A stretch of DNA of 64,000 bases from a virus (lineage: Duplodnaviria > Heunggongvirae > Uroviricota > Caudoviricetes): positions 29,514 through 93,513 of IMG/VR virus record IMGVR_UViG_3300042879_005260; one strand, 5' to 3'. Numbering within the stretch: the stretch's first letter is position 1; the number at the start of each line of letters is the position of its first letter. Shown here in pieces: positions 35,960 through 57,756 of this stretch. The notes under the pieces were generated by a model. It ran no database searches, was not told the DNA's origin, and saw nothing but the letters and a program-made list of their open reading frames with translations. The position numbers were made by a program, and so were the translations under genes.

Positions 35960-36030
35960 GCGAGTATAGCATAAAATTAATGCGCCGGTTTTCCAAACCG
36001 AAGAAGGTGGAGAGTTACCATCTACTCGCT
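35960..36030 (+). tRNA. tRNA-Gly(UCC) candidate with atypical D/T loops
   Basis: acceptor GCGAGTA/TACTCGC; anticodon arm CCGGT-TTTCCAA-ACCGA; T-stem GGTGG/CCATC with non-canonical loop AGAGTTA; D-loop lacks GG. Confidence 0.4.
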
Positions 36031-36039
36031 CAAAAATAA

Positions 36040-36110
36040 GCGGTATTTGTGTAGTGGTAAGACATGACATTGCCAATGTTAAGACGTAAGTTCGATTCTT
36101 GCATACCGCT
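36040..36110 (+). tRNA. tRNA-Gly(GCC)
   Basis: acceptor GCGGTAT/ATACCGC; anticodon arm TGACA-TTGCCAA-TGTTA; T-arm GTAAGTTCGATTCTTGC. Confidence 0.6.
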
Positions 36111-36156
36111 CTATTGATTTTTTTACATTGTAAACATATATTTATATTAAAAAAAT

Positions 36157-36708: not shown

Positions 36709-36727
36709 TTTTATATATTTGTGATAT

Positions 36728-36890
36728 ATTTATAAAACAGAAAATGAAAAATTGGCAAAACATATCGATTAACCATAGTAACCGAATTAGTTCGGAATGT
36801 ATGAGGTGTGTCTTGTCCAGATTTAAGGTATAATTATTTTTATAAAAAATTGGATAACCCACCTCAAGAAATTTGATGGTGGGTTTTTTG
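36728..36890 (+). ncRNA. candidate small RNA (~160 nt) between promoter and terminator
   Basis: TTGATA..TATATTTG promoter at 36692-36721; terminator hairpin 36856-36885 plus T-run; only a 29-aa ORF inside. Confidence 0.3.
36855..36890 (+). terminator. rho-independent terminator
   Basis: aacccacc...ggtgggtt hairpin plus T6. Confidence 0.6.
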
Positions 36891-37006
36891 TTATTTGACA
36901 TATTGGAAATAAATTGGAGAGTTAAGCAGATGCATTGGAGCGTCGACCAGCTTTGAAACCTGGGTCTCGTTAAATTGAGTGGGGGTCGGGTCCTCAGCTC
37001 TCCGCT

Positions 37007-37081
37007 GTGTCTGTAGCTTAGATGGTTTAAAGCGTCTGATTGTGGTTCAGAAGACCGTGGGTTCGAATCCCACCAGACACC
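37007..37081 (+). tRNA. tRNA-His(GUG)
   Basis: acceptor GTGTCTG/CAGACAC; anticodon arm TCTGA-TTGTGGT-TCAGA; T-arm GTGGGTTCGAATCCCAC. Confidence 0.65.
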
Positions 37082-37087
37082 TTATAG

Positions 37088-37159
37088 GGGGGTGTAGCTC
37101 AGAGGCAGAGCAAACTACTGTTAATAGTTAGGCCGAGATTTCAAAATTCTCCATCCCCG
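37088..37159 (+). tRNA. tRNA-Asn(GUU)
   Basis: acceptor GGGGGTG/CATCCCC; anticodon arm AACTA-CTGTTAA-TAGTT; T-loop TTCAAAA. Confidence 0.55.
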
Positions 37160-37165
37160 CAAAAT

Positions 37166-37238
37166 AGTACCGTGTCTGAACGGTTTAGGAACTATCCTGA
37201 TAAGATAGGAAAAGTGGGTTCGACTCCCACCGGTACTA
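37166..37238 (+). tRNA. tRNA-Ile(GAU)
   Basis: acceptor AGTACCG/CGGTACT; anticodon arm CTATC-CTGATAA-GATAG; T-arm GTGGGTTCGACTCCCAC. Confidence 0.65.
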
Positions 37239-37244
37239 CAACAT

Positions 37245-37326
37245 GCATCTGCTCATTGGTGTGACCAACCGGCTCCAACCCGGTAATGCGTAAGCGTGGT
37301 TAAGAGTTCGAATCTCTTCGGATGCG
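37245..37326 (+). tRNA. tRNA with anticodon CCA (Trp?) and long extra arm, atypical
   Basis: acceptor GCATCTG/CGGATGC; anticodon arm ACCGG-CTCCAAC-CCGGT; T-arm AAGAGTTCGAATCTCTT; 82 nt. Confidence 0.4.
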
Positions 37327-37331
37327 CAAAA

Positions 37332-37418
37332 GGAAGATAGGTAAATATTGGTTTGTTACAACATCCTGCTAAGATGTCCCAGGTAAAACTGGTGAGGGTT
37401 CAATTCCCTTGTCTTCCG
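37332..37418 (+). tRNA. tRNA-Ser(GCU), class II
   Basis: anticodon arm ACATC-CTGCTAA-GATGT; long variable arm CCCAGGTAAAACTGGT; CCA encoded. Confidence 0.65.
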
Positions 37419-37424
37419 CCAAAT

Positions 37425-37499
37425 AGTCCCATAGCTCAACGGATTTAGAGTACAGTGCTACGAACACTGCGGTTGAAGGTTCAAATCCTTCTGGGACTA
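37425..37499 (+). tRNA. tRNA-Arg(ACG)
   Basis: acceptor AGTCCCA/TGGGACT; anticodon arm CAGTG-CTACGAA-CACTG; T-arm GAAGGTTCAAATCCTTC. Confidence 0.65.
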
Positions 37500-37540
37500 C
37501 AAACATTTACTAAAAAAAGAAAATTTCATATTATTCAAAT

Positions 37541-38041
37541 ATGATTAAGAAAAATATTAAAAAACATTTTCTTCTTGAAAATAATGTTAATTCTTTAACT
37601 ATAAGTGGTCCTGGTCTTACTCTTGGTCAAAGTCTTAATATTGTTATGAATAATGGGATTGTGTTAACACAACCAATACGTTATTGTTTATCAATACAAC
37701 GTAACCAAGGGGTCAAAAGATTTTATGTTAACCTTTTAAACCCTATATCTTATGTATATAATAACAATTTTAATCGAGAATGGTTACCACTGCATTTAAA
37801 AATTACAGATTCTATTAATTGTGACTCACCCCAAGAATGGTTTCAGGATTGGTTCTTCGATGATCAACAACAAGGTACTTTTTTAACCTTAGAAAAAATT
37901 AACCCTACAGGTGAAATTACTGGTTGTTATAATTTTCACAATTCTTTTTTACAAGAACTCAACAATGAAGTTGTTTTTGATAGATTGGTAAATCCTATAG
38001 AAATTAAGATTAAATACGCTAATATGAATGTTTTGTTTTAA
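37541..38041 (+). CDS. hypothetical protein
   Basis: ORF track 166 aa. Confidence 0.4.
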   Translation: MIKKNIKKHFLLENNVNSLTISGPGLTLGQSLNIVMNNGIVLTQPIRYCLSIQRNQGVKRFYVNLLNPISYVYNNNFNREWLPLHLKITDSINCDSPQEWFQDWFFDDQQQGTFLTLEKINPTGEITGCYNFHNSFLQELNNEVVFDRLVNPIEIKIKYANMNVLF

Positions 38042-39105
38042 ATTCTATCATAAACATCTTCTTCAAAGTAAGGTAGAACTTCTTTTCTACTAGGATATTC
38101 ATCAAACCTTGGAGACCAAAGTTGCCCATTTTCCGTTAACATATTTTCAAATAAACTTTTAAATAGATAAGAGTCAAAATCATGACAATCATCACAATAT
38201 TCTTCAGGATTTTCAACTTTACGGTTATTTAAACAATGTTCAAAACAACCATAAAAATAATCATTAATCACCCCTTCAAATAAGTCAGTAATATCAAATT
38301 TTAAAAAATATTTGGTTCTACCTTTTTCGTTAGTTGTGGTACCCTCAATAGGTTGACCAAATACATCTGTTATGGCTTCTTTTATAGATTTATAAATATT
38401 GTCAGTTGTGGCAACATTATAAGCACTATCATAAGCCCAACCAAACTCTCTTTTTAATTCTAAAAAAGTATCGTCATCATCTATTAAACGACCTAAAGAT
38501 TCTGGGTTTTCTGTTAACCAATTAAAATATTCGTTATCCAATAGACGTTCTTTTCCTCCGGACATTAAATCTTCAACATAATAGATTTCTCTTTTCTCTG
38601 GTAAATTACCAAAAATATCTAATTGTTTTGGGTTGTAATTATCAGGGATAACATATTCTTTTTTAATATGTTTTAAAATATATTCATAAAGTTTATTATT
38701 ACCTACAACACCTTCTAACCAAACATCATTAAACCAACTGCCGTAGGTATCGTTATAAGGTTCCCACCAATTGTTTTCATCACAAAATATTTTTTCAACC
38801 AACCAAGAATTAACTATACCGTATTGGGTTAAATTATCATCATTTTTGAAAAAACCAGTAAAGTCACAAAAACCATCTACCGTCATCATAATTCTATCAC
38901 CTTCTAAATTTATATCACTAAATTCGGAGGCTAGTATTGGCATGATTCTTTTTTTAAGGTTTACACTTTTTGATTTGCCGTAATTTGCACGATACCAAAG
39001 TATGCCAGCCGGAATTTCAACTGTTTCAACATTATCAATTAAATCTCCCACCCAATCAAAATCATCAAATTCTTCTCTCAATATTTTTCTTATAAGGTTT
39101 TTCAT
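38038..39105 (-). CDS. array-associated family member (conserved N-terminal module fused to an unrelated 330-aa body)
   Basis: MKNLIRKILREEFDDFDWVG then unrelated sequence; start abuts distal repeat of mini-array C. Confidence 0.5.
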   Translation of the reverse strand: MKNLIRKILREEFDDFDWVGDLIDNVETVEIPAGILWYRANYGKSKSVNLKKRIMPILASEFSDINLEGDRIMMTVDGFCDFTGFFKNDDNLTQYGIVNSWLVEKIFCDENNWWEPYNDTYGSWFNDVWLEGVVGNNKLYEYILKHIKKEYVIPDNYNPKQLDIFGNLPEKREIYYVEDLMSGGKERLLDNEYFNWLTENPESLGRLIDDDDTFLELKREFGWAYDSAYNVATTDNIYKSIKEAITDVFGQPIEGTTTNEKGRTKYFLKFDITDLFEGVINDYFYGCFEHCLNNRKVENPEEYCDDCHDFDSYLFKSLFENMLTENGQLWSPRFDEYPSRKEVLPYFEEDVYDRI

Positions 39106-39118
39106 ATTTTATAAATAT

Positions 39119-39286
39119 CAGGTTAACATTTTTCGTTTATGGGTCATCTCCAGCTATGCCATTGGTAGCAGAGTGGTCTCTAACGCTGTCAATACCTTTC
39201 GTTTATGGGTCATCTCCAGCCAAAGTTCCCACGTTTTAAAAAGACATGCAGCTGTCAATACCTTTCGTTTATGGGTCATCTCCAGC
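39119..39286 (-). CRISPR. mini-array C: 3 repeats (36 bp), 2 spacers (30 bp each)
   Basis: repeats 39119-39154 (degenerate distal), 39185-39220, 39251-39286 (gene-proximal); spacers 39155-39184 and 39221-39250. Confidence 0.65.
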
Positions 39287-39597
39287 ATACGCACGCATAA
39301 GTCTTTGGTTTCCTGATAGTTAAGACCAAATTTTTGACTTAATTTTGACCAAATTTCATCATAATCAACCCATAAACAAGGGTTTTTTTCATTTCTATCC
39401 ACATTATCCGCCATTAAATTTAGCCCACTTTTATCCTTATATAACATCCAACCTGGATGTTTTTCCGAAGGAACCGCCTTTAAATTGGACATAATTTCAT
39501 AAAGAAATTCTTCAGCGGGGGAAAATTCTTTAATTTCCCCCACCCAATCAAAATCATCAAACTCTTCCCTTAATATTTTTCTTATAAGATTTTTCAT
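39154..39597 (-). CDS. array-associated family protein; 3' end runs through mini-array C
   Basis: MKNLIRKILREEFDDFDWVGEIKEFSPAEEF...CVRMLEMTHKRKVLT; ORF tail is in-frame read-through of repeat-spacer units (each 66 bp). Confidence 0.55.
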   Translation of the reverse strand: MKNLIRKILREEFDDFDWVGEIKEFSPAEEFLYEIMSNLKAVPSEKHPGWMLYKDKSGLNLMADNVDRNEKNPCLWVDYDEIWSKLSQKFGLNYQETKDLCVRMLEMTHKRKVLTAACLFKTWELWLEMTHKRKVLTALETTLLPMA

Positions 39598-39610: not shown

Positions 39611-39844
39611 CAGGTCAACACCTTTCGTTTATGGGTCATCTCCAGCTCAAATCAACTTCAATCAAAGTCCGATTCAGCTGTCAATACCTTTCGTTTATGG
39701 GTCATTTCCAGCACCCTCGCCCGGATTGTTGGAGGTGAAAAGGCTGTCAATACCTTTCGTTTATGGGTCATTTCCAGCCAGCGAATGTGAAGCGTGACAC
39801 CTCCGGTTGCTGTCAATACCTTTCGTTTATGGGTCATTTCCAGC
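39611..39844 (-). CRISPR. mini-array D: 4 repeats (36 bp), 3 spacers (30 bp each)
   Basis: repeats 39611-39646 (degenerate distal), 39677-39712, 39743-39778, 39809-39844; spacers 39647-39676, 39713-39742, 39779-39808; spacers about 50% GC in a roughly 30% GC genome. Confidence 0.7.
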
Positions 39845-41346
39845 ATACGCACGCATAAGTCTTTGATTTCTTGTTCATTAAGACGAAATTCTTGATTTAA
39901 TTTTAACCAAATTTCATCATAATCAACCCATAAATAAGGATTTTCTTTATCTCTATCCGCATCATCCGCCATTAAAGTAACCCCGCTTTTATCCTTATAT
40001 AACATTAAACCTGGATTATTTTCCGAAGGAACCACCTTTAAATTGGACATGATTTCATACAAAAATTCTTCAGCGGGTGAAAATTGTTTGGTGTTACCAA
40101 CTAATTCTTCTGCCCAACCAAAATCATCGGATTCAAATAAATTATTTATAATATCTTGAACTTCTTTTTGGTAGATACCAATTTTTTTAAACTTAATTCT
40201 ACCCGATTCAAGATGTTTTAAAAAATCAATAACATAATAACCAATTTTATGTTTTATACCATTAACTGAGTCTTCCCAGGAAATTATAAAATCATCATAC
40301 CCATCTTCCACTCTTAACTCTTCTATTTTATATTCTTCATTTGGTTTGTTGGTATAATAAAAAATAGAACCTATATAATCTTTTGGGTTTTGAAACTTAT
40401 TTTCTTTATTTTCATATAAACTACTTATTATATCATAAGCGTTTGGTAAATCACCTAAATTTTTTAAAACAAAAAAACCATTATTTAAATATTCAATAAG
40501 GATACTTATTGTCATTGTAGAATATTCTGTCATTGGTTCACCATCTTCATTTAGATCATCAGGGTCTTCCCATTCAATGTCAATTAAGTCAACAGAACTA
40601 TCTTGATCCCAAATACGATATACCACAAATTCTTCAGGGCTATAAAACTCAAATCCAATTAGATTTTCATCTTTTAAAAAATCAAATTTACCTTCCAATA
40701 ATAAAGAATTATTTTTTTCTTTATTTTCTTGAATTTTATTTTTGTTAAATAAATTTTTTAAACCATGGGTACCAACAGCCATAATAATACCACTCAAAAG
40801 TTCTTGAACATTATTAATAGTAAAACCTTTTTCTGTGGTTAAATTTTTAATAAAATCTAAAACCGGAACTGATAAAAATGTAAAACTTAAAATATCTAAT
40901 AAATCGTTAATCATGTAACCAAATTTTTTACCAAATATTTTAAATAAATTGATTGTTTTGGAAATAAAATTTAAAACTGGTGATATTTCTTTTTCAAGGC
41001 CTCTTTCTTTAATCTTATCAACAACCTCATCAATTTCTTCTTTTGGTTTTGATAGGATAATATAAATCGCAACAATTGTTAAAAGTGCAACATCATAATC
41101 CGTAACATTTAAATTTTTATTTTCTAACAAAGATTTAACTGGGCCAATAAAAGCGGAAATACCAACTCCATAAGTCATTATAAAGTTGAAATTACTTTTT
41201 AGCTGTGAAATGATTTCTTTTAACACTGGATTAGTTTTTACATCGAAACCTTTATTAATTATATTTTCATTTAAAGAATTAAGTTTACCTTTAAGATAAA
41301 CCTCTTCTAGTAGTAAATTTAAAGAGATATTAGAAATGTTACCCAT
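39658..41346 (-). CDS. large protein (562 aa) whose C-terminal ~130 aa is the array-associated family domain; 3' end runs through mini-array D
   Basis: ...FESDDFGWAEELVGNTKQFSPAEEFLYEIMSNLK...CVRMLEMTHKRKVLT; N-terminal ~430 aa unrelated. Confidence 0.55.
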   Translation of the reverse strand: MGNISNISLNLLLEEVYLKGKLNSLNENIINKGFDVKTNPVLKEIISQLKSNFNFIMTYGVGISAFIGPVKSLLENKNLNVTDYDVALLTIVAIYIILSKPKEEIDEVVDKIKERGLEKEISPVLNFISKTINLFKIFGKKFGYMINDLLDILSFTFLSVPVLDFIKNLTTEKGFTINNVQELLSGIIMAVGTHGLKNLFNKNKIQENKEKNNSLLLEGKFDFLKDENLIGFEFYSPEEFVVYRIWDQDSSVDLIDIEWEDPDDLNEDGEPMTEYSTMTISILIEYLNNGFFVLKNLGDLPNAYDIISSLYENKENKFQNPKDYIGSIFYYTNKPNEEYKIEELRVEDGYDDFIISWEDSVNGIKHKIGYYVIDFLKHLESGRIKFKKIGIYQKEVQDIINNLFESDDFGWAEELVGNTKQFSPAEEFLYEIMSNLKVVPSENNPGLMLYKDKSGVTLMADDADRDKENPYLWVDYDEIWLKLNQEFRLNEQEIKDLCVRMLEMTHKRKVLTATGGVTLHIRWLEMTHKRKVLTAFSPPTIRARVLEMTHKRKVLTAESDFD

Positions 41347-43055: not shown

Positions 43056-43517
43056 ATGAAACATATAATTAAAGAAATATTATTACAAGAAGCAAAGAAA
43101 AAAGATGACCGTTGTACCAGGATTGCTAAACGTAAATACGATGTTTGGCCTTCTGCTTACGCATCAGGTGCAGTAGTTAAATGTCGCCAAGGTAAAATTT
43201 GGAAAAATGAAAATTTAGAATATGATGATTTTTTATTGTTTGAAAACGATGAATATGAAAATATTTTAATTGAGGAATCTAAAAAAGATTTTAGTAAAGA
43301 AAAAGAAGAAGGTTTACATGGTTGGTTTGCAAGACAAGGCGGTAGTGGTAAAGGAAAAGGCTGGGTAGATTGTAACACCTGTAGAACCGATAAAAAAACA
43401 GGTAGAAAAAAGTGTAAAACTTGTGGCCGTCAAGAAGGTGAAAAAAGAGCTAAATACCCAAGATGCAGACCAACACCATCACAATGTAAAGGATATAAAA
43501 GACCGGACGAAAGATAA
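43056..43517 (+). CDS. basic Cys-rich protein
   Basis: C-terminal CNTCRTDKKTGRKKCKTCGRQ...CRPTPSQCKGYKRP. Confidence 0.4.
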   Translation: MKHIIKEILLQEAKKKDDRCTRIAKRKYDVWPSAYASGAVVKCRQGKIWKNENLEYDDFLLFENDEYENILIEESKKDFSKEKEEGLHGWFARQGGSGKGKGWVDCNTCRTDKKTGRKKCKTCGRQEGEKRAKYPRCRPTPSQCKGYKRPDER

Positions 43518-43518
43518 A

Positions 43519-45789
43519 ATGCCTTATAGAGTAGATCCTAAAAATAAAAAATGTGTGCAAGTTAAAAAATCGGGCAAATGGCAACGTAAAGGTTGTACAG
43601 ATGGCCCTGTTAAAAAATATCTTGCGGCATTATACGCAAATACCGAAGATATTACTGAATCAACCGAAAATCAATTTGATTGGGTAGAAAATATCATTGG
43701 TAAGATTTCTTTTGGATCTTTTAAAAAACATCTTAAAGAGGGTGATAAAGTTATTTTAAGTGGTGAAATAACTGATGATATGGGTGAAACTTGGTGCTCT
43801 GTAGAAGAAGAACCTTTTTCTGTTGAAGAAATTACAGCCAATAATTCTATATATTTAAAATGGGTCAGAGATGTGAGTGAAAGACCTGCTGATTGGGAAT
43901 CTATAACAAATGATTTTGATGTTATTTATTTTACGAAAGATACCGAAGAATATGATAATAACTTAATAGTTACCATTTTTAAAGACATAAATTTAAACGA
44001 AAATACTGAAAATTCTGAATGGTGGGAAGATGTTATGGAAAATAGATTAAAATTTGGTAACATAAGAAAACATTTGCAAGAAGGTGATATCATAAATTTA
44101 ACCGGTGATTTAAAGGATAGTGACGGCAATATTGAATTGACTTTAAATGAGGAACCTTTTATTGTGGTACGTAATGTAAATGAAGGTAAAATGGTTATAT
44201 TAAGATTTTTAAACTTTTCAAAACCAGATGATTTACCTAAAGGTTGGGATGTTGTTGCAAATCTTGGTAACGGTGATGTTTATTTTAGAAATTTCACCAA
44301 AAAATATGATGATGAACTTATTGTTACATTTAACGATGATAATAGATTAAATGAAAATTTTGAAGATTCTGAATGGTACATGGATATTATAAATGACCCT
44401 GGTAGTGTTTTAAACTTTAAAGGGAAAGAGATTATGATAGATGTTAGAGGGTTATCTTTTGAAGAAAAATTAAGGTTATTAAAAATTATAACACCATATG
44501 TTAATGAAAGTAATATTGAAAGAAACCAAAATAGTTCAGAACAAGATGATTGGGCACCTGAATGTTTATTAAGAAGTACTAGGGTTATGAGTATAAGTTT
44601 ACATTGTGGTACTGAAGAAACTGATTACATACCCGAATCAGGGAACTTTTGTTGTCTTACATATAGTTACGAACATGAAGAAAATACACCAAAAGAACTT
44701 ATTTTACCACTAAATGCTAGAGATATTTTAAATTCATATCATCTAAATGAATCTGATTTTGATTGGATTAATGATCTTTTAGAAAAAAAACCACCTTTTC
44801 CACCACCAAATACTCCGGTAACAATGGATAATTGGGATCAATATAAAACGGTTAAAGTCATTAGGGGTAAAGATTGGGATTGGGGTGATCAAGATAATAA
44901 TGGTTTTGGTAAAATAGTTGGTGAACCTTTTAATGAAACCGAGGGCAATGAATGGTGGATAGAAGTTAAATGGGATAATGGTCACAAAAATAATTATAGA
45001 GTTGGTGAGGTGTATTATGACCTTTATTTTTACACACCAGAAATTTGGATAAAAAATCCTTATGAAAAAAAATTAAATGAATCAAATCGGCATAAAGGTT
45101 TTGTTAATTTAATAAAAGAAGGAAAATATGATAAAATAACTGGTCTTGCTGTTAAAGATATCATGCGTATTTTAAATACCATCACGGAAAAAGATAAAAA
45201 AAAATCTAAATACAGTTTCTCACTACCAAATGATTTAAAACTTAAAAATCAAAATGAATATTACCAAGAAGGCCTGCAATTTGGTATTAATTTGGAAATT
45301 TATTACGTTGATAATTTAAATTCTGGGGAAGATTTCGAAGTTGTTTCGGTTATTACAAAAGATAGATATGTTAGGGATTACGAACAAGAAAATAATATAT
45401 TAATAAAAATCAAAATAAAAAAAGGCACAGATAAAACAATCTTTAATAGAATATACTATAAATTAAATGAAGATATTAGGCATGAAATAGAACATTTTAA
45501 ACAATCAGGGCCTAATTTAATTCCAGGTAGACCAAAGCCAAAAGATTCTAAGTATTTTAAAACAACATTTGGCCATCATAAAAATTTGGCAGAAATACCT
45601 GCTTTAGTTCACGGTTTTTATCGTCGAGCAAAAAAAGAAAAAAAACCTTTAGATGTTGTCATGATAGAAGATTTGGATAAAGAAGTAACAAGAGGTGATA
45701 TAAATTTAAAACAAAAAGAAAAATTATTACAGATTTGGATTGATTACGCGAAACAAAATATCCCAACTGCCATTTACAAAAACTTTTAA
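43519..45789 (+). CDS. large hypothetical protein with C-terminal HExxH module
   Basis: start moved to MPYRVDPKNKK (track ORF overlaps upstream gene); C-terminal RHEIEHFKQ...KKPLDVVMIEDLD homologous to 62195..63178 product. Confidence 0.5.
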   Translation: MPYRVDPKNKKCVQVKKSGKWQRKGCTDGPVKKYLAALYANTEDITESTENQFDWVENIIGKISFGSFKKHLKEGDKVILSGEITDDMGETWCSVEEEPFSVEEITANNSIYLKWVRDVSERPADWESITNDFDVIYFTKDTEEYDNNLIVTIFKDINLNENTENSEWWEDVMENRLKFGNIRKHLQEGDIINLTGDLKDSDGNIELTLNEEPFIVVRNVNEGKMVILRFLNFSKPDDLPKGWDVVANLGNGDVYFRNFTKKYDDELIVTFNDDNRLNENFEDSEWYMDIINDPGSVLNFKGKEIMIDVRGLSFEEKLRLLKIITPYVNESNIERNQNSSEQDDWAPECLLRSTRVMSISLHCGTEETDYIPESGNFCCLTYSYEHEENTPKELILPLNARDILNSYHLNESDFDWINDLLEKKPPFPPPNTPVTMDNWDQYKTVKVIRGKDWDWGDQDNNGFGKIVGEPFNETEGNEWWIEVKWDNGHKNNYRVGEVYYDLYFYTPEIWIKNPYEKKLNESNRHKGFVNLIKEGKYDKITGLAVKDIMRILNTITEKDKKKSKYSFSLPNDLKLKNQNEYYQEGLQFGINLEIYYVDNLNSGEDFEVVSVITKDRYVRDYEQENNILIKIKIKKGTDKTIFNRIYYKLNEDIRHEIEHFKQSGPNLIPGRPKPKDSKYFKTTFGHHKNLAEIPALVHGFYRRAKKEKKPLDVVMIEDLDKEVTRGDINLKQKEKLLQIWIDYAKQNIPTAIYKNF

Positions 45790-45829
45790 AATTTTTATTA
45801 TTATCCTATAATTTTTAATTTTTAAAATC

Positions 45830-46033
45830 ATGGGAAAAAACGCGAAAGAACATCGTAAACGTGTAGAAGCACGTAACCGTAGAATTGAAACTACAAGAAA
45901 TAATTTTAGAAAAAAGTTTCAAGAAGAACTTTTAAAACAAATCGAACACCAAAAAACCCTTCAAAATGAAGAAGGTACCGTTGTTTCTGAAATAAAAAGG
46001 GTTAATCCTGAAATTGAAAATGATGCTGAGTAA
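45830..46033 (+). CDS. small basic protein
   Basis: ORF track 67 aa, Arg/Lys-rich. Confidence 0.35.
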   Translation: MGKNAKEHRKRVEARNRRIETTRNNFRKKFQEELLKQIEHQKTLQNEEGTVVSEIKRVNPEIENDAE

Positions 46034-46048
46034 AAAAAAATTATTATT

Positions 46049-46678
46049 ATGGAAAATATAGTGGAAGAGTATAAAATTGTTGATCGTGAAATTAAATACG
46101 AGGGTAGTAACAATTTTAAAATAGAAGAAATAACTTTACAAAAAGGTGATAAAAAAATTAAAAGACAGATTTTTGACAGGGGTAATGCAATTGCCGCACT
46201 TGTTTATAACACCGAAACCAAAAAATTTCTTTTTGTAGATCAATACCGTGCAGGAACAAACGGTAATATGTTAGAAATTGTTGCAGGTGGTATTGAAAAA
46301 AGTGAAAAACCAGAAGATGCTGTTAGACGTGAAATTGCGGAGGAATTAGGTTATAAAGTAGATAAGATAACTCACATTAAAGATTTTTATGTTTCACCTG
46401 GAGCTAACACAGAAATTACTGCACTTTTTTATGTTGAGGTTAGTGAAAAAATTTCTGAGGGTGGTGGTGTCGATGATGAAGATATTAAAATTGTTGAAGT
46501 TGAAGATTTAGGTTTGAGTGGTAATGTTTTTTTCGAAAACATAGATAATGGCGTATTAAAACCACCATATCAAATGATAGACGCAAAAAGTATTATTGCA
46601 ATAAATTGGTGGGTTTCAAATAGTATGATGAAATCTCTTTGGACAACAATTTCTGATTTTAAACTCAAATCTATTTAA
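46049..46678 (+). CDS. Nudix hydrolase (ADP-ribose pyrophosphatase-like)
   Basis: Nudix box GGIEKSEKPEDAVRREIAEELG. Confidence 0.6.
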   Translation: MENIVEEYKIVDREIKYEGSNNFKIEEITLQKGDKKIKRQIFDRGNAIAALVYNTETKKFLFVDQYRAGTNGNMLEIVAGGIEKSEKPEDAVRREIAEELGYKVDKITHIKDFYVSPGANTEITALFYVEVSEKISEGGGVDDEDIKIVEVEDLGLSGNVFFENIDNGVLKPPYQMIDAKSIIAINWWVSNSMMKSLWTTISDFKLKSI

Positions 46679-47292
46679 TGAAAACAATATTTTGGTGTGT
46701 TAACGCACAAGAGGATTTTTTTGAGGGTGGCGTAATCAACATAAAAGGTTCTAACGAAATTAAACCTAAAATAAGCCAATTAACCAATTTCGCTAAGGAA
46801 AATAAAATAAAAACAATTACTGTTGTTTCTTGGAATAAAACAGATGAGGAATGGTTTTCTAAGGATCCAGATTATGTTAAAACTTTTCCACCACATTGTA
46901 TTGAAAACACAAAAGGAACTAATATTATTTCAGAAGCTTTGCCAGACAATAATTATTTTTTAATAAAAAATGATATCCCATATATAATATTTCCTGAAAT
47001 ACATAAACATAGAAATATTATTATTTTTAAAAATAATATTAATTTGATTGAAGGTAATAAATTTGCTGATAGTATTTTAAATAATCTAGGTACCGTAATA
47101 ATGGAAAGACCAAAATATATTGTTTACGGTGTTGGAGCTAATTTGGTAGCTAAAGATTTAACTAAACGTGGTTATGAGGTTAAAGTTGTAAAGGACGCGT
47201 CAGTTGATTTTCCTGGTTTTGAAATTAATTTAGAAGAAAATAATATTGTAACTACAACAACAGAAGATTTACTAACAACACAAGTAGTTTAA
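46678..47292 (+). CDS. isochorismatase/nicotinamidase-family hydrolase
   Basis: IFWCVNAQEDFFEGG...TITVVSWNK...FPPHCIENTKGTN matches isochorismatase-like (PncA-type) signature ...DxQxDF...PPHCv.GT.G. Confidence 0.5.
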   Translation: MKTIFWCVNAQEDFFEGGVINIKGSNEIKPKISQLTNFAKENKIKTITVVSWNKTDEEWFSKDPDYVKTFPPHCIENTKGTNIISEALPDNNYFLIKNDIPYIIFPEIHKHRNIIIFKNNINLIEGNKFADSILNNLGTVIMERPKYIVYGVGANLVAKDLTKRGYEVKVVKDASVDFPGFEINLEENNIVTTTTEDLLTTQVV

Positions 47293-47307
47293 TATAATAA
47301 AAAAAAT

Positions 47308-47913
47308 ATGGAATACACAGAAGAAGAACTTATAGAAGTTGTTCAGAGATGGGAACACACTGGACTTTTATCTAATTTACCACTTTACGAAAAACAAGAG
47401 TTAGCACCACTTTTTGATAACGCTACAAGAGTATTTTTATCTAAAAATTTAGACGAAATAACAAATGATTTAGTGGAAACAGTTTTATACCCCATCTGTA
47501 GACGCCTATATAGACGTGTTGGTTTAGATTTTAATATCGAAAACATGGTTGATTCATTGATTAAAAAAGTTAAAGAAGACAAAGAAATTTTATTAAAAAA
47601 CAATATTGATAGTAGGGTAAATTCTGTTGTTGTATTTTCGGTCAATTTTGCGGATATTTATGAAGATGAAACTACTAATAAAAAACAATTTGATGATGAT
47701 GAATACCTCGATAGAGTTAATAAACTTTTAAATACAATGAAAGAAATTCTTATAAATAAAGAAATGGTTTCTTTTGTGGATAGAACCCAGGATAATTGGG
47801 AGGTTATAACTTCTGATGGTAAAAAATCTGATAAACAAATAAGACATTGGAATCAAAAAATAGCTAGGGAAGTTTTTGAAACCATTTTAAAAGATACAAA
47901 CAAAGGCATATGA
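47308..47913 (+). CDS. hypothetical protein
   Basis: ORF track 201 aa. Confidence 0.4.
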   Translation: MEYTEEELIEVVQRWEHTGLLSNLPLYEKQELAPLFDNATRVFLSKNLDEITNDLVETVLYPICRRLYRRVGLDFNIENMVDSLIKKVKEDKEILLKNNIDSRVNSVVVFSVNFADIYEDETTNKKQFDDDEYLDRVNKLLNTMKEILINKEMVSFVDRTQDNWEVITSDGKKSDKQIRHWNQKIAREVFETILKDTNKGI

Positions 47914-48653
47914 ATGAATGGATACGTAAAGGTGCGGTAGTATTTTCACTTGCAACAAGTAAGGTGGAAAAGGATTTATTGGCACAAAATGAAAGTGAAG
48001 ATATCTTACGTAATAATCATGCTATTATAAATCCTTATAGTAGCAATAAATTAATGAATGATCTTAAGCAAGGTAATGTAACTCGTGAAGTAAAAGAGTT
48101 TCGTAGGAGACATTATCAAATTTTAAAAGAATCCGCTAAATATAAATTTAAAAATGGACAACTTTTATCGGAAGAAGAAGCAAAACATATGAAAATTACA
48201 CAAGGTGATCCCCATGATACTTACCCTGTGGAAGTTGTTTTCAATAATAAACCAATCGGGGCGGCTTTATATGGAACACAAGAAATAAGACCACTAAAGG
48301 TTAAAAGAGGTGTTATTCCAAGGTATAAAATAGAAAATCATACTTCAGTAGTACATATTAGAAATGTTGATGGAGAATATAAACTTTTAGATTTTTACAT
48401 ACCAAAATCTACTGATAATCATTTATTATTGAATGAATTAGAAAATTTAAAATTAAACAAAAAAATAAACGATTTAGTTAACATCACTGAATGTAGTTTT
48501 ACGACTCAAGATTCTGAGATGTTAAATTTTTCATATAAAGTAGTTGCTTTCCATAAAGTTGTTGAATACAATAACAATTATATTGTTAAATTATTTGCAG
48601 AAGTTGTTGAAGACGGTCGATGGATTGCGGATTGGACCCAGATAATTGACTAA
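47910..48653 (+). CDS. hypothetical protein
   Basis: ORF track 247 aa. Confidence 0.4.
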   Translation: MNEWIRKGAVVFSLATSKVEKDLLAQNESEDILRNNHAIINPYSSNKLMNDLKQGNVTREVKEFRRRHYQILKESAKYKFKNGQLLSEEEAKHMKITQGDPHDTYPVEVVFNNKPIGAALYGTQEIRPLKVKRGVIPRYKIENHTSVVHIRNVDGEYKLLDFYIPKSTDNHLLLNELENLKLNKKINDLVNITECSFTTQDSEMLNFSYKVVAFHKVVEYNNNYIVKLFAEVVEDGRWIADWTQIID

Positions 48654-48691
48654 AAAAAAATAACTTTATTTATATTTATATTAAAAATATT

Positions 48692-48997
48692 ATGAACTTT
48701 AAATTACCAAATTTTAAAAAAAGAACACCTACACAAATTAATAAAAGTGTTGCAGAAGGTGATTACACCGGTGGATACCAATTCTTACCTTGGTTATTTT
48801 ATTATCAAAAATTGGTTCTTGTTGCTTTTTTTCTTAATATCTTTTTCGGTGTCAAAGCTTTTGGAATTTATATAAATGCCGGTAACGAAACTTTTACAGC
48901 AATTGTTTCCGTATATTTTGGTTTATTAATCCCTTCTCTTATTGTTTTTTTACTTGTTCGTGAGTATAAACAAAAAAAGAAAGGCATATCAAAATGA
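48692..48997 (+). CDS. small membrane protein
   Basis: two hydrophobic helices. Confidence 0.35.
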   Translation: MNFKLPNFKKRTPTQINKSVAEGDYTGGYQFLPWLFYYQKLVLVAFFLNIFFGVKAFGIYINAGNETFTAIVSVYFGLLIPSLIVFLLVREYKQKKKGISK

Positions 48998-49497
48998 CAT
49001 TTAAAATTAAAAAAGGTAAACATTATTGTGATCAATTTTTATATAAACTATTAAACCTTTTTAATTTTAATAAAAAAATAGAGTATATTGTTAAATTTGA
49101 CAGTTCTTGCATTTACGAATTAAATAAAGAAGACCAATTGGATATTAATAAACTTTTTGGATTTTCTTCTGGATTTTCACACCACCAAAACTCAGTTCGC
49201 TTTGGTTGGAACTATATAGAAGGTAAAATAGTTTTATATGCTTACTGTTACGATGATGGTAAAAGAATTAAATCATATATTTGTCGTGTAGATGTTGAAG
49301 ATGAAATTAAATTGACTATATTTGTGGAAAATGATGCTTACGTTTTTGAAGTTCAAAAATTAAAATTAGGTTCCAGGTCAAAAGTTAAAATGTACAAAAC
49401 AAAAAAGTTTTTATTTGGTTACAATTTGTGGCCATATTTTGGTGGCAATAATGTTGCACCACACGAAATGTCAATTCAAATGACTAAAGTTAATTAA
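48994..49497 (+). CDS. hypothetical protein
   Basis: ORF track 167 aa. Confidence 0.4.
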   Translation: MTFKIKKGKHYCDQFLYKLLNLFNFNKKIEYIVKFDSSCIYELNKEDQLDINKLFGFSSGFSHHQNSVRFGWNYIEGKIVLYAYCYDDGKRIKSYICRVDVEDEIKLTIFVENDAYVFEVQKLKLGSRSKVKMYKTKKFLFGYNLWPYFGGNNVAPHEMSIQMTKVN

Positions 49498-49505
49498 TTA
49501 TATTT

Positions 49506-50030
49506 ATGAGAGAAAAAAAAGTTTCACATCGTTTGAATGCGGAAATTAAACATCGCCAAATTAGGATTATTGGTGACGGTATTGAATCAAAAGTTTGTTC
49601 AGTTTTTGAAGGTATTAAAATTGCAGAAAGTTTGGGTGCGGATTTGGTGGAAATAAACTCAACAAATAACCCACCGATTTGTAAAATCATAAAATATGAT
49701 AAGTTTTTATATGAAGAGAAAAGAAAACAAAAAGAAATTGAAAGACGTAATCGTGAATTACGGGTCGATATTAAAGAAATTAGGCTAACACCTAACATAG
49801 ACACCCATGATATTCAATTTAAAAGCAAACATGCTGCAAATTTTTTATCTCAAGGTGATAAAGTTAAAATTGTAATGCAATTTAAAGGTCGTGAGATTGC
49901 TTATACTGAAAAGGCGGAAAAAACAATCTTAGAATTTGTTCAAAACTTAACTGACTATGGTGCGGCTGAAAGTCTACCTAAAATGGAAGGTAAAAAAATG
50001 TTCATTATAGTTTCACCACGTAAAAAATGA
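49506..50030 (+). CDS. infC: translation initiation factor IF-3
   Basis: HRLNAEIKHRQIRIIGDGIESKVCSV...DLVEINSTNNPPICKIIKY...ELRVDIKEIRLTPNIDTHD...QGDKVKIVMQFKGRE matches IF3 N- and C-domains. Confidence 0.75.
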   Translation: MREKKVSHRLNAEIKHRQIRIIGDGIESKVCSVFEGIKIAESLGADLVEINSTNNPPICKIIKYDKFLYEEKRKQKEIERRNRELRVDIKEIRLTPNIDTHDIQFKSKHAANFLSQGDKVKIVMQFKGREIAYTEKAEKTILEFVQNLTDYGAAESLPKMEGKKMFIIVSPRKK

Positions 50031-51573: not shown

Positions 51574-51687
51574 TTTGATATCTTTTTAATTTCTTTTTAA
51601 TAAATAAATATCTAAAGTTTTGTTTGACTTAATATTTTTATTTCTTTATTTTTAAAAGCATATTCTATATTACTCAAAAAAATAAAA

Positions 51688-52113
51688 ATGAAAACAATAA
51701 TTGATGAAACCCTGATTATTAATTTAAAACCAGAAATCATTAAAGACGAAACTAGAGGTCTCATAGGTGCAAAGTTTAAATGGGGTATTTTGGCTAAACC
51801 TGAAATTATCTCAAAAGATGAAAATGGAGTAAAAGTTTTCTGTCCAAACAATATCGATCCTAAAATTGGTATCAGAGACGTACAATCTATGCGTTTATTT
51901 TCTATACACATTGTTAAGCAAATGATTGAAAACAAAGAACAAATAGATCAAACAGAAGTATATTCAAAAATAAATTTTGAGTTACCTGATGATATTAAAA
52001 ATTTTATTGTTAAAGTTCTAGAGGAGTTGGAAATTAAAGTCCTGGATGAAATCTTTTATCACAATAATCCAATAAAACCTATAAAAGAAGAAATTAAAAA
52101 AATATCAATTTAA
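51688..52113 (+). CDS. hypothetical protein
   Basis: ORF track 141 aa; co-directional with downstream genes. Confidence 0.35.
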   Translation: MKTIIDETLIINLKPEIIKDETRGLIGAKFKWGILAKPEIISKDENGVKVFCPNNIDPKIGIRDVQSMRLFSIHIVKQMIENKEQIDQTEVYSKINFELPDDIKNFIVKVLEELEIKVLDEIFYHNNPIKPIKEEIKKISI

Positions 52114-52996: not shown

Positions 52997-53419
52997 GTGA
53001 AAAACCTTATAAAAAAAATATTAAGAGAAGAGTTTGATGATTTTGATTGGGTGGGGGAAATTAAAGAATTTTCCCCCGCTGAAGAATTTCTTTATGAAAT
53101 TATGTCCAATTTAAAGGCGGTTCCTTCGGAAAAAAATCCAGGTTGGATGTTATATAAGGATAAAAGTGGGCTAAATTTAATGGCGGATAATGTGGATAGA
53201 AATGAAAAAAACCCTTGTTTATGGGTTGATTATGATGAAATTTGGTCAAAATTAAGTCAAAAATTTGGTCTTAACTATCAGGAAACCAAAGACTTATGCG
53301 TGCGTATGCTGGAGATGACCCATAAACGAAAGGTATTGACATCTGATGGCCTGCCTGCACGGTTTCTTGTTTTGCTGGAGATGACCCATAAACGAAAGGT
53401 ATTAACCTCATATTTATAA
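52997..53419 (+). CDS. array-associated family protein (apparent GTG start); 3' end runs through mini-array E
   Basis: VKNLIKKILREEFDDFDWVGEIKEFSPAEEF...CVRMLEMTHKRKVLT; ATG at 52994 is followed by TGA, GTG in frame. Confidence 0.5.
   Translation: MKNLIKKILREEFDDFDWVGEIKEFSPAEEFLYEIMSNLKAVPSEKNPGWMLYKDKSGLNLMADNVDRNEKNPCLWVDYDEIWSKLSQKFGLNYQETKDLCVRMLEMTHKRKVLTSDGLPARFLVLLEMTHKRKVLTSYL
53308..53409 (+). CRISPR. mini-array E: 2 repeats (36 bp), 1 spacer (30 bp)
   Basis: repeats 53308-53343 and 53374-53409 (degenerate distal); spacer 53344-53373 tgatggcctgcctgcacggtttcttgtttt. Confidence 0.6.
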
Positions 53420-53422: not shown

Positions 53423-53806
53423 ATGAAAAATTTTATAAGAAAAATATTAAGAGAAGAGTTTGATGATTTTGATTGGGTGGGGGAAATTAAAGAATTTTCC
53501 CCCGCTGAAGAATTTCTTTATGAAATCATGTCCAATTTAACAATGATTCCTTCTGAAAATTATCCAGGTTGGATGTTGTATAAAGATGAAATCGGAAGAA
53601 TATTAATGGCTGATGATATTGACCTTAATGACGGGGCTCCAAGTTTATTAATATCTTATCATGGAATATTTCAAATTTTAAGAAATAAGTTCAAACTTGA
53701 ATATGGTGAGATGGTGAAATCATCTAAAAAAATATTTAATTTGGTACACAAACGCCAAGTTGATGCTGTCGGAGCACTTTATAACTTACATTTATCACAA
53801 TTTTAA
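53423..53806 (+). CDS. array-associated family member with diverged C-terminus (no array)
   Basis: MKNFIRKILREEFDDFDWVGEIKEFSPAEEF... ends LVHKRQVDAV instead of LEMTHKRKVLT. Confidence 0.5.
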   Translation: MKNFIRKILREEFDDFDWVGEIKEFSPAEEFLYEIMSNLTMIPSENYPGWMLYKDEIGRILMADDIDLNDGAPSLLISYHGIFQILRNKFKLEYGEMVKSSKKIFNLVHKRQVDAVGALYNLHLSQF

Positions 53807-54734: not shown

Positions 54735-54920
54735 ATGTTAATAGTTAAAGTCACAGGAAAAATAGATTCAGCAATTAAAGCTTTACGTTCAAAAGTTATT
54801 AAAACCCGCCAAATGCGAGAACTTAATGATAGAAGAGAATATAAAAAAGATTCAGAAAAGCGTAGAGAGATGGTAAAGAAGGCAATTCACGTTCAAAAAA
54901 AATATAAAAACAAAGATTGA
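54735..54920 (+). CDS. rpsU: ribosomal protein bS21
   Basis: 61-aa basic protein MLIVKVTGKIDSAIKALRSKV...RREYKKDSEKRREMVKKA follows the S21 pattern (IKV..AL+.F+....+....RRRE.YEKP). Confidence 0.55.
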   Translation: MLIVKVTGKIDSAIKALRSKVIKTRQMRELNDRREYKKDSEKRREMVKKAIHVQKKYKNKD

Positions 54921-55832: not shown

Positions 55833-57674
55833 TTAAATTTTGATTTTGTAATTATTGGGTAGATGATTTTTATTTAAAAAATTAATTAATTCTTCTGCAA
55901 TTTTATCGTTTTCATCGATTGGTTTTTGGTTTCCTTTTGTTGGGTAATTACCACTATGTTGAGCCTTTCTAAAAATCAATGATTCTTTATAAATTTTATC
56001 TAAAGTATTATCTTCATAAATAACTATGCACTTCTCTTCAAAAGAAGTTGGTTCGTAAACTTCTTTAATGTTAATCGTTGTATTTTCTTTATTTATTTTT
56101 TTTGTTATCGGCAAATACACCTCAAGAGTGGAACCAGAATTTTCTGTTTGTATATGGAAAATACGTGAATACCCATTTTTTACCTTATTACCGTAACCAC
56201 CAACACAATGACCCATCATTTGGCCTTCAGATTTAAGATCAATAACGGTTGTTAACTCTTTAACATTTTTTGCCCATTTAAAATCTTTAAGGTCAATTTT
56301 ATCAACCAATTCTTTGGTGTTTGTTTCTTTTTCTTTTTTAAAAATTTCTAAAATAACATCATTAGTAATAGTATTACCTATTAAATCTTTATATTCTGAC
56401 CAATTCAAGGTTTCCAAAGAACCAATAAACCATTGGCCTTCTTTGTTTGTTAGATTTTTTATAAATTTAATAATTTGATAAGTTTCTTCTAACGTATTAG
56501 TGTGTTTTAAAAAATTACGCAATCTACCGTGTTCATGACAAAATTCATCGACATAATCAACATGTTTAACATTAAAATTACATTTATAATAATCTTTTTT
56601 TGACATCAACATCTCAAAAGTAAACCTATAGGAATTATAAGTAGGTTTTATTTCTGATTTATTCTTATCATCATCATTTCGAACCACTCTTTCCCAAACA
56701 TCTTCAACAGACTTTTTATCCAAAAAAACATTTTTATAAAATATTTTATTTATTTTATTTTGTTCACTTTTGTTACGATAATTATACATCAAATCCCAAA
56801 TCTTTTTTAATTTCGACATATTGTCAACAGATTCAAAGATGTCAAAATTTAACACAGGATCATAAGACCACAAGTTTTCTTTAATTTCGACATCATTGTG
56901 ATATTGTAAATCACTTGGTTTTAAAGGCCTTAAAATAAAATATTTTTCTATTTCATTTTTAAATTTATCATATTTTATTTTTGTTTCAGGGCCAATAATT
57001 TTGTTGATAGTTCTGTTGTTAAGGTTTTTTGCTGCAGCGGTTAAAAATCGCATTTCGTGTTTTATATCACAATAAGCGTTTAATTCTTTTATTTTTTTAA
57101 ATAACCTGATACTGCTCTGGATAGGTGAACAAGGGTTTATAACTCTGATTTGTTTGGTTTTTAAAAAATCCACAAATTCTGGTGTGTATATGATTTTTTC
57201 AGATTCTAAATCCAAACCGGCTTTACAACAATTTAAATCAAAACCGTCGATAACAACGTATTTTTCATTTTTATCACCATTACCCTTTTTATAAATATAA
57301 TTAATATTGTTGATTAAACCATTACGTGAATGGTTCACTACCCTCATCATAGAACCAGTTTCTGTTATGAAAATACGACCATAATGATCATCAACAATCT
57401 GTAAACCACTTTCAGTGATAAATGTTGTTGGGTACCAATTATCTTTAATCGATTTTACACCATTAATATTTGATTTTTTTTCTTCCTCGACACGGTGATA
57501 AACATCAATATCATTAATTACAGGTTGGCCACCGTGAACCATGGATGTTAGAATATTGGATACGGAGCCACCTGCGATAAAATCTTCGTTATTAATTTTA
57601 TCAATGTTAACGTATCTTTTTAAAATTTCTAAAACTTTATAGTAAGTTTCTTTTGAATCTAAAAACTGTTTCAT
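55833..57674 (-). CDS. hypothetical protein (613 aa, start adjusted)
   Basis: track start 57755 lies inside a terminator hairpin; the ATG at 57674 (MKQFLDSK) is preceded by TTATATTTG -7 box. Confidence 0.45.
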   Translation of the reverse strand: MKQFLDSKETYYKVLEILKRYVNIDKINNEDFIAGGSVSNILTSMVHGGQPVINDIDVYHRVEEEKKSNINGVKSIKDNWYPTTFITESGLQIVDDHYGRIFITETGSMMRVVNHSRNGLINNINYIYKKGNGDKNEKYVVIDGFDLNCCKAGLDLESEKIIYTPEFVDFLKTKQIRVINPCSPIQSSIRLFKKIKELNAYCDIKHEMRFLTAAAKNLNNRTINKIIGPETKIKYDKFKNEIEKYFILRPLKPSDLQYHNDVEIKENLWSYDPVLNFDIFESVDNMSKLKKIWDLMYNYRNKSEQNKINKIFYKNVFLDKKSVEDVWERVVRNDDDKNKSEIKPTYNSYRFTFEMLMSKKDYYKCNFNVKHVDYVDEFCHEHGRLRNFLKHTNTLEETYQIIKFIKNLTNKEGQWFIGSLETLNWSEYKDLIGNTITNDVILEIFKKEKETNTKELVDKIDLKDFKWAKNVKELTTVIDLKSEGQMMGHCVGGYGNKVKNGYSRIFHIQTENSGSTLEVYLPITKKINKENTTINIKEVYEPTSFEEKCIVIYEDNTLDKIYKESLIFRKAQHSGNYPTKGNQKPIDENDKIAEELINFLNKNHLPNNYKIKI

Positions 57675-57749: not shown

Positions 57750-57756
57750 TTTCAAA

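Follow-up and report, generated by a model that had tools for sequence, protein, structure and literature searches.

A Nudix gene joined to a PncA-fold putative pseudoenzyme in a huge phage: a probable remnant of a Preiss-Handler NAD+ cassette

Can a phage gene pair that reads by annotation as an ADP-ribose pyrophosphatase and a nicotinamidase take part in the salvage of nicotinamide adenine dinucleotide (NAD+)? The question is raised by a locus in 64,000 nucleotides of a Caudoviricetes virus (positions 29,514 to 93,513 of IMG/VR record IMGVR_UViG_3300042879_005260), a stretch referred to here as the window. An original prediction, made from the letters alone, had picked out a Nudix hydrolase gene followed at once by a gene for a PncA-like protein, and the list of open reading frames (ORFs) confirms the pair at the same coordinates, 46049-46678 and 46678-47292, both on the + strand, with a one-base overlap between the Nudix stop TAA and the PncA-like start ATG (TAATG; TTTAATGAAA). 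The source annotation names the first product 'ADP-ribose pyrophosphatase' and the second 'nicotinamidase-related amidase'. In the reading that we consider probable, the pair is a remnant of the Preiss-Handler NAD+ cassette of jumbo phages, the Nudix enzyme clearing ADP-ribose and a dead PncA being kept in a non-catalytic role.

The family of the second protein can be approached through profiles and through structure. The match to Pfam Isochorismatase (PF00857) is confined to residues 7-98 and scores 31.6 bits, the cutoff being 27, and the weak sequence matches of the protein in the PDB are nicotinamidases (3pl1 and 1ilw, E~3e-5), while the score against the NCBIfam PncA equivalog NF008623 is 16 bits for a cutoff of 174. 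About 1,400 representatives of the family were gathered by a hidden Markov model search of the whole library. A first AlphaFold2 run on a 17-sequence alignment modelled residues 91-142 poorly, with a predicted local distance difference test score (pLDDT) of 65.6, and was replaced by a run on 122 sequences that reached a pLDDT of 94 and a predicted template modelling score of 0.91. Foldseek places nicotinamidases at the top of the PDB matches of this model (2wt9, 9u8m, 1ilw and 3pl1; E ~1e-8 to 1e-7, template modelling score ~0.65), the enzymes matched coming from Acinetobacter, Drosophila, Pyrococcus, Mycobacterium tuberculosis, yeast and Leishmania; there are 123 PDB matches at E<=0.001, all 50 of those listed being isochorismatase-superfamily proteins, and the best viral structural matches are annotated as nicotinamidases too. 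The assignment of a nicotinamidase fold is thus sound.

The active site departs from that of nicotinamidases at most of the positions that matter for catalysis. In alignments with PncA of M. tuberculosis (Mtb), gp275 of Bacillus phage G, a 30%-identical homologue (P0075) and the orthologue on contig L017, which is described below, the catalytic Asp (Mtb D8) corresponds to Asn9, the metal ligands D49, H51 and H57 have become Ser51, Asn53 and Trp59, with the loss of three of the four ligands, and the segment that should carry the nucleophile has no Cys and is followed by a helix four residues shorter than in relatives; the intact L017 orthologue reads YGVATNVCVKAAVEGL at this segment. Of 154 members sampled from the wider family, 143 have Asp at the position equivalent to Asn9 and 121 have the full D/H/K/C set, the window clade having N/(N,Y,F)/K/no-Cys in its place. 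The only cysteines of the protein are Cys7 and Cys74, neither of them at the nucleophile site; Cys74 was considered as a replacement nucleophile and rejected, as it forms part of the WPxHC motif and would be non-nucleophilic there as it is in active enzymes. Compared with the nicotinamidases Mtb 3PL1, P. horikoshii 1ILW and A. baumannii 2WT9, the window protein also differs in a ~20-residue insertion before the Lys strand and in an identity below 20%, but it shares with them, besides the fold, the QxDF motif, the pyridine-sandwiching aromatics F14 and F70, His73 and the triad lysine K118. Within this retained set, FPPHC supplies the aromatic that stacks on the ring (Mtb W68) and the one metal ligand left, His73 (Mtb H71). 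The stretch FPPHC...GT at residues 70-81 is the motif that had been spotted in the original prediction; it is not the catalytic one, and the missing catalytic residues had gone unseen.

Such losses might be expected of a gene in decay, yet the protein belongs to a well-populated clade, with 74 clusters at 90% identity from lake and other metagenomes, on contigs of up to about 318 kb, whose members are mostly 203-206 aa long and 49-99% identical to the window protein. The homologue clusters in this range of identity number 75, and beyond them P0075 is the one outlier. N9 is found in 67 of 68 clade members, Q11, D13, F70, H73, C74, K118 and G151 in all 68, and F14 and P71 are likewise invariant or nearly so. 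Pocket positions are 97-100% conserved, in a protein with a mean top-residue frequency of 0.81 and only 34% of positions conserved at 95% or more. Pairwise ratios of non-synonymous to synonymous substitution (dN/dS) of the PncA-like gene are 0.09-0.36 within the clade, where dS is saturated, and up to 0.53 against the protein of contig L010; the range is similar to that of the Nudix gene and of p201, a gene for a 201-aa protein further downstream. By these measures the PncA-like and Nudix genes are to be taken as real conserved genes and not chance ORFs, and because purifying selection goes together with an invariant residual pocket, the PncA-like protein is read as a pseudoenzyme rather than the product of a decaying gene, one that would have been retained for a role that still uses the old pocket but not Cys-based amide hydrolysis.

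For the Nudix partner the catalytic signature is complete. The protein matches Pfam NUDIX (PF00293) at E=1.6e-15 and, with 101.3 bits, lies above the cutoff of 79.55 for NCBIfam TIGR00052 (YffH/AdpP nucleoside diphosphatase), and the closest solved structures are those of E. coli NudK and ADP-ribose pyrophosphatases (1viu and 3o52; E~5e-22). Its Nudix box, GGIEKSEKPEDAVRREIAEELGY, has the catalytic REx2EE glutamates, and the box is kept in the orthologues of loci L001, L006 and L008 when these are aligned with cassette Nudix proteins. Fifteen residues past the box there is a Pro (...ELGY KVDKITHIKDFYVS P GANTE), which aligns with that of NudK YMSPGGVTE; a Pro some 15-16 residues after the Nudix box is a signature of ADP-ribose-type Nudix enzymes. 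With the full box, the SPG proline and the GGG..E loop, the protein resembles the ADP-ribose/GDP-mannose pyrophosphatases (NudF, NudK; TIGR00052), but its equivalog scores are far under the cutoffs (83.1 vs 234 for NudK, 66.5 vs 248 for NudF, 44.6 vs 169 for NudE), so that a precise substrate is not assigned. The product is thus predicted to be an active Nudix pyrophosphatase of the ADP-ribose/nucleoside diphosphate-sugar type, and the detoxification of ADP-ribose by the Nudix enzyme alone is plausible. A regulator of the NrtR type, as in phage G, was rejected, the Pfam scan giving no match to the winged-helix domain NrtR_WHD. Profile searches have in this way borne out both families of the original prediction, an ADP-ribose pyrophosphatase-type Nudix and a PncA/isochorismatase fold. 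The window has another Nudix gene, a shorter one, at 23142-23597 (+; 151 aa, Pfam NUDIX 4.5e-16), which is positionally unrelated to the pair and probably encodes a separate, MutT-like enzyme.

The origin of the pair becomes visible in a related phage contig. Contig L017 (NCBI WLWF01000052.1, 96.7 kb), which was reached through distant p201 homologues, has a block that starts with a GP88/L5_gp82-like gene, a 217-aa protein and PncB (NAPRTase), followed directly by a Nudix gene; it continues with a 140-aa protein, a NadD-like nucleotidyltransferase and four more genes, one with a YAcAr domain, then PncA, at 7326-7982, with all catalytic and metal residues intact, and NadE with an intact SGGIDS PP-loop, and it ends with an HD protein, a 141-aa protein, p201 and a homologue of p247, the protein that follows p201 in the window. 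The series PncB-Nudix-NadD...PncA-NadE is a complete Preiss-Handler cassette. The window retains, in the same order and with the tblastn identities given here, the Nudix protein (47%), the PncA-like protein (42%), p201 (49%) and p247 (45%), preceded by a domain of an upstream protein that is 33% identical, at E=3e-33, to the L017 217-aa protein upstream of PncB and therefore marks the place where PncB would be. PncB, NadD and NadE of L017 themselves gave no tblastn match in the 64 kb or in the loci, 14-20 kb long, of six relatives from the window clade. Among 85 viral loci around NadE, PncB-Nudix-(NadD)-NadE occurs in L017, L019, L032, L040, L072 and L088, so that this type of Nudix is a recurrent cassette member; L033 and L043 have PncB-NadD with no Nudix detected. 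As a single query, L017 PncB found no viral relatives.

Between the complete cassette and the bare pair, other contigs show what look like partial states. L010 has a Cys-less PncA, a truncated NadE-like protein and then p201, the NadE-like protein measuring 229 aa instead of 299, with an identity of 31% where the neighbours have 63-77%, and its PP-loop reading DGGLDS; L010 may represent an intermediate state of cassette erosion. In L106, a Nudix gene is followed after a 3-nt gap by a dead PncA, 36% identical to that of the window, a 106-aa protein and p201. A neighbour-joining (NJ) tree puts the window clade in among intact sequences and makes the Cys-less L010 type the sister of the intact L017 protein, which, given how rough the tree is, implies with some caution at least two independent inactivations of PncA. 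The catalytic-residue patterns of sister lineages differ as well (DNFHK-, DGYHK- and DLRQKS). Divergently upstream of the Nudix gene, L106 also has a Prs-family gene (2-595, -; Pribosyltran_N, 3.3e-14), cut by the contig end, which could be a phosphoribosyl pyrophosphate (PRPP) synthetase or an Adps-like NARP1 enzyme; its place beside Nudix and dead PncA hints that dead-PncA lineages may use the amidated NAD route.

A working pathway would need partners, and these were sought in the window with Pfam scans of non-overlapping ORFs of at least 70 aa; left out were the TTG-start ORFs 36656-36901 (-) and 43157-43378 (-), two ORFs overlapping tRNAs, and four members of a paralog family whose proteins mostly begin with MKNLIRKILREEFDDFDW (39154-39597, 51612-51935, 52997-53419 and 53423-53806). 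The scans detected no PncB, NadD/Nmnat, NadE, Nampt/Namat, Prs/Adps, NadR or PnuC in the window, and no Pfam match to NAPRTase, CTP_transf_like, NAD_synthase or Pribosyltran; tblastn with the Prs-like protein of L106 found nothing in the window. Left of the window, the 10 kb that could be read through an identical contig have no NAD genes, and the best 80 of at least 560 viral matches in a NadE profile scan include none on a window-clade contig. The original prediction had proposed to look for nadV- or NMNAT-type partners elsewhere and had named the absence of NAD-pathway partners as evidence against itself; none was found in the window or the 10 kb left of it. The window pair cannot make NAD+ on its own. 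What survives of the proposed NAD link is therefore descent, through the L017 cassette and the PncB-Nudix-(NadD)-NadE clusters elsewhere, while the catalytic losses speak against a working salvage or reconstitution module.

These observations can be joined in a single account, which we regard as probable. The lineage would have lost the biosynthetic enzymes PncB, NadD and NadE, and deletion of the intervening genes would have made the Nudix and PncA-like genes adjacent. The Nudix enzyme presumably still splits ADP-ribose into AMP and ribose-5-phosphate, the ADP-ribose coming perhaps from host NAD-cleaving defences or from NAD-consuming enzymes of the phage, and would thus clear or recycle ADP-ribose without rebuilding NAD+. 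The PncA-like protein would no longer deamidate nicotinamide; it may have been kept for a non-catalytic task, most likely the binding of nicotinamide, nicotinate or a small molecule akin to them by the amide-binding and aromatic portion of the former active site, which is conserved, and it may act together with the Nudix enzyme, with p201, or with both. A ligand of the nicotinamide/nicotinate type is the most plausible because neither the Asn/Lys pair that contacts the amide nor the aromatic clamp varies.

Several points weigh against this account. The view covers 64 kb and about 10 kb of left flank of a genome that probably measures ~300 kb, and PncB, NadD, NadE or Nampt could lie elsewhere in it. 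The word 'inactive' presupposes the known Cys-Asp-Lys plus metal mechanism, and a different chemistry is possible; ligand binding is suggested by residue conservation only, and the direction of change, loss and not gain, is taken from parsimony and an NJ tree that is only rough. Synteny among these phages extends over the whole region, so that gene order alone is no proof of functional coupling, and in some relatives the Nudix and PncA-like genes are separated by unrelated genes, from one to several in number (for an HD protein, an HNH endonuclease or a membrane protein).

A more novel reading goes further than the remnant account and is tentative, its probability being low but not negligible. 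It holds that phage nicotinamidases have repeatedly turned into dead but conserved ligand binders, with at least two to three independent losses within one phage subfamily, and that the window protein and its Nudix neighbour form a new counter-defence or metabolic-sensing factor. The protein would capture nicotinamide, or a molecule containing nicotinamide or ADP-ribose, that is freed when host NADase defences fire, for instance to shield nicotinamide from deamidation, to supply it to an enzyme of the amidated route or to act as a sponge for a signal.

It is unlikely that the PncA-like protein has become an enzyme with a new chemistry or substrate, acting through Lys118, Asn9, His73 and the family-specific blocks IHKHRN and EGNKF. 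An enzyme, too, would be expected to keep the residual active-site positions invariant and dN/dS low, and isochorismatase-superfamily members without a Cys nucleophile exist (EntB/PhzD). Such Cys-less isochorismatases need the Asp, however, and this protein has Asn in its place; the intact L017 orthologue shares the IHKHRN and EGN blocks, which are thus no replacement active site, and the repeated and varied residue losses in sister lineages look like relaxed catalysis.

More doubtful is the absence of any functional link, in which the two genes would be neighbours through synteny and deletion, the Nudix enzyme taking care of general nucleotide housekeeping and the PncA-like protein doing something unrelated, structural or regulatory, perhaps with p201. 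The variable insertions between the genes in relatives fit this, as does the absence of a Nudix gene immediately upstream in L010, where only 162 nt of contig with an opposite-strand fragment are available; p201 is the more constant neighbour, and the whole block from 43 to 50 kb is a single co-directional string of genes. Set against this, the adjacency of Nudix and dead PncA recurs in the distant L106, the stop/start overlap of the two genes is conserved between the window and L006, and both genes descend from one metabolic cassette.

A dedicated counter-defence pair, in which the Nudix enzyme would break the pyrophosphate of ADPR-PP-like molecules or of signals of the Thoeris type (gcADPR, His-ADPR), with the dead PncA as a sponge for a signal that contains nicotinamide or ADPR, appears improbable. 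Phages do counter NAD-based defences by sponges and by NAD reconstitution (10.1101/2024.02.11.579819), a sponge would be expected to show just such a dead but strongly conserved ligand pocket, and the phage carries at least one other gene of anti-defence type, for a Gad2-family protein. No similarity of either protein to a known sponge or signal-degrading family was seen, however, and no support was found among PHROGs, in the PDB or in the literature, where searches brought up no relevant work on isochorismatases as anti-defence proteins of phages or on the action of Nudix enzymes on Thoeris signals. The pocket of PncA is a small one with room for a single pyridine ring, and descent from a metabolic cassette explains the pair without signalling.

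Finally, a working NAD+ salvage module, in which an active nicotinamidase feeds host or phage PncB and the Nudix enzyme provides ribose-5-phosphate from ADP-ribose, is very improbable despite its fold and nearest relatives, its orthologues in true Preiss-Handler cassettes, its annotation, and host PncB, NadD and NadE that could in principle finish the pathway, since there is no Cys near the active-site helix, the catalytic Asp is Asn throughout nearly all of the clade, three metal ligands are replaced, the PncA equivalog score is far below its cutoff and the window holds no pathway partner.

The remnant account also determines how the pair relates to phage NAD+ systems described before. Closest are the published 'NAD-jumbo phages' with pncB-nadD-nadE gene clusters (PMC11662467): the window Nudix and PncA-like proteins are orthologues of cassette members with the same flanking genes, but PncB, NadD and NadE are not with them, and the PncA-like protein is without the nucleophile, the general base and most metal ligands. 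The NAD+ reconstitution pathways NARP1 and NARP2 (10.1101/2024.02.11.579819) and NARP3, consisting of a PnuC transporter and a NadR-like enzyme (PMC13464706), resemble the window pair in being phage-encoded, NAD-related and plausibly shaped by NAD-depleting defences. The window pair descends in contrast from the deamidated, Preiss-Handler route, and a variant of a NARP-like module, as had been proposed, is not what the locus contains: no Prs-like or Nampt-like enzyme was found in the window to correspond to NARP1 (Adps and Namat), no Nampt or Nmnat to correspond to NARP2 (Nampt and Nmnat/Nudix), and neither PnuC nor NadR to correspond to NARP3. NatV, a salvage enzyme of phage KVP40 that belongs to what is now called NARP2, also includes a Nudix ADP-ribose pyrophosphatase domain.

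In Bacillus phage G, gp273-gp277 comprise an NrtR-like Nudix, gp274, PncA (gp275), gp276 and PncB (gp277), and in this giant phage too Nudix and PncA genes lie two genes apart in an NAD-salvage neighbourhood. The phage G Nudix protein has the NrtR winged-helix domain of the regulator type, however, its PncA has the full D/H/K/C set and PncB is present; gp275 has no tblastn-detectable relationship to the window PncA-like protein. The window pair is best described as a reduced derivative of the Preiss-Handler type. The NAD-ADPr survey of Iyer and Aravind mentions neither PncA nor NadE, and no report of catalytically dead phage PncA homologues was found in a literature search of incomplete coverage.

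The distinction matters for surveys of phage NAD+ metabolism that work from annotations, which could count the pair as salvage capacity ('nicotinamidase' plus 'ADP-ribose pyrophosphatase'), although the residue-level check leaves the window clade unable to run the nicotinamidase reaction by the known mechanism. The graded series that comes from comparison with L017, L010 and L106, running from a complete cassette through a Cys-less PncA with a decayed NadE to Nudix with dead PncA alone, portrays the erosion of a phage metabolic cassette, with one eroded part kept under selection. Should the PncA-like protein prove to bind a ligand derived from NAD, the phage toolkit around NAD-depleting immunity would gain a new member; should it bind none, it still calls for caution over annotation-based claims of viral NAD+ metabolism.

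Table 1. Position of the gene pair, its diagnostic residues and its syntenic neighbours in the window.
Feature	Position	Strand	Remarks
C-terminal domain of 788-aa upstream protein	45106..45783	+	Left synteny anchor; homologous to L017 217-aa protein
Nudix hydrolase ORF	46049..46678	+	209 aa; YffH/AdpP (ADP-ribose / NDP-sugar pyrophosphatase) subfamily
Nudix box, complete	46286..46354	+	Residues 80-102; regular-expression match to GX5EX7REUXEEXGU
PncA-fold (isochorismatase superfamily) putative pseudoenzyme	46678..47292	+	204 aa
Asn9, at catalytic Asp position (Mtb PncA D8)	46702..46704	+	From alignments
Former metal-binding segment SWNKTDEEW	46828..46854	+	Residues 51-59; from alignments
FPPHC motif	46885..46899	+	Residues 70-74; invariant in clade
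Lys118, retained catalytic-triad lysine (Mtb K96)	47029..47031	+	68/68 in clade
GVGANLVA, against GVATxxCV of relatives	47128..47151	+	Residues 151-158; Cys nucleophile (Mtb C138) absent
p201, 201-aa protein	47308..47913	+	0-3 genes downstream of PncA-like gene in every related locus reaching far enough
p247, 247-aa protein	47910..48653	+	Synteny anchor common to L017 and L001; absent in L006 and L008

The neighbours of the pair are listed in Table 1. The p201 protein, which is possibly part of the unit and possibly merely syntenic, matched nothing in Pfam, PHROG or the PDB profiles, and the names of its 246 homologues are uninformative. The 788-aa upstream protein (43423-45789, +) has a eukaryote-type MIB_HERC2 domain (E=2e-10), and its C-terminal ~225 aa contain an HExxH-like motif (HEIEH) and are homologous to the product of 62195-63178 (+). 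In relatives the interval between the Nudix and PncA-like genes is a hotspot of insertion, the insertions including an HNH endonuclease; an HD-domain protein of 188-189 aa (weak Pfam HD), absent from the window, comes straight after the Nudix gene, with a stop/start overlap, in L008 (7432-8001), L012 (7950-8516) and L013 (7208-7774). The + strand shows no terminator-like site from 43149 to 49416, and the window has no excess of promoter-like sites (51 against 42.5±6.9), so that operon borders are not definable.

The exact proteins of the window occur also on a contig of 122,591 bp, and relatives are found on contigs from metagenomes and among IMG/VR viral contigs, the longest of them 298-318 kb. 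The window phage is a huge phage, with a genome probably around 300 kb in size, several times the window. A comparison with 50,697 GenBank phage records gave no match, either by blastn in distant mode with 44000-50000 or by tblastn with the PncA-like protein, and there is accordingly no cultured relative in that set. The window is AT-rich, with ~28% GC, and holds many co-directional small genes, an IF3 homologue and 21 tRNA genes. Secreted or surface-type proteins encoded at 581-3622 (-) have CHU_C, PKD and Por_Secre_tail domains, and the type IX secretion sorting domains among these (CHU_C, Por_Secre_tail) suggest a Bacteroidota host.

Of the genes bearing on defence, 55833-57755 (-) may be an anti-defence gene: its large product has a precomputed Pfam match to Gad2 (anti-Gabija) and a weak one to PcfJ in an identical contig, the direct Pfam scan giving PcfJ only. 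Immediately to the left of the window there is a gene of the DruA family. Domains linked to RNA repair systems are found at 22108-22641 (-; HAD_SAK_1) and at 59961-60347 (-; cREC_REC), the latter gene adjoining a DHFR gene (60364-60831).

Several elements of the window concern RNA and translation. GOLLD is a large structured RNA, and a full-model match to it (Rfam RF02032; 306 bits, the gathering score being 150) lies at 35129-35543 (+) within the ORF-poor stretch 33510-36040, between two tRNA arrays and in the part of the window highest in GC (0.39). A group I intron match (RF00028; 61 bits against 50) at 33875-34062 (+) stands just downstream of a 304-aa ORF (32596-33510), with a weak tRNA-like call at 34341-34434 nearby. 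The tRNA genes, called by ARAGORN with further Rfam calls, lie in 29208-30300, 32444-32521, 36040-37500 and 63398-63729; that at 32444-32521 has the anticodon UUA, of the suppressor type reading UAA, and a low Rfam score of 36.9 bits. The IF3 homologue (49506-50030, +) is full-length, with IF3_N and IF3_C, and a 61-aa ORF at about 54735-54920 (+), its coordinates obtained by offset, has a Pfam match to ribosomal protein S21 in an identical contig (L102 1174-1359).

The paralog family beginning mostly with MKNLIRKILREEFDDFDW has no Pfam match. Its copies are spread over the window at 6872-7264 (-), 21508-21873 (+), 38038-39105 (-), 39154-39597 (-), 39658-41346 (-), 52997-53419 (+) and 53423-53806 (+), and several end with one to three tandem units of the form (R/W)(M/V)LEMTHKRKVLTA.

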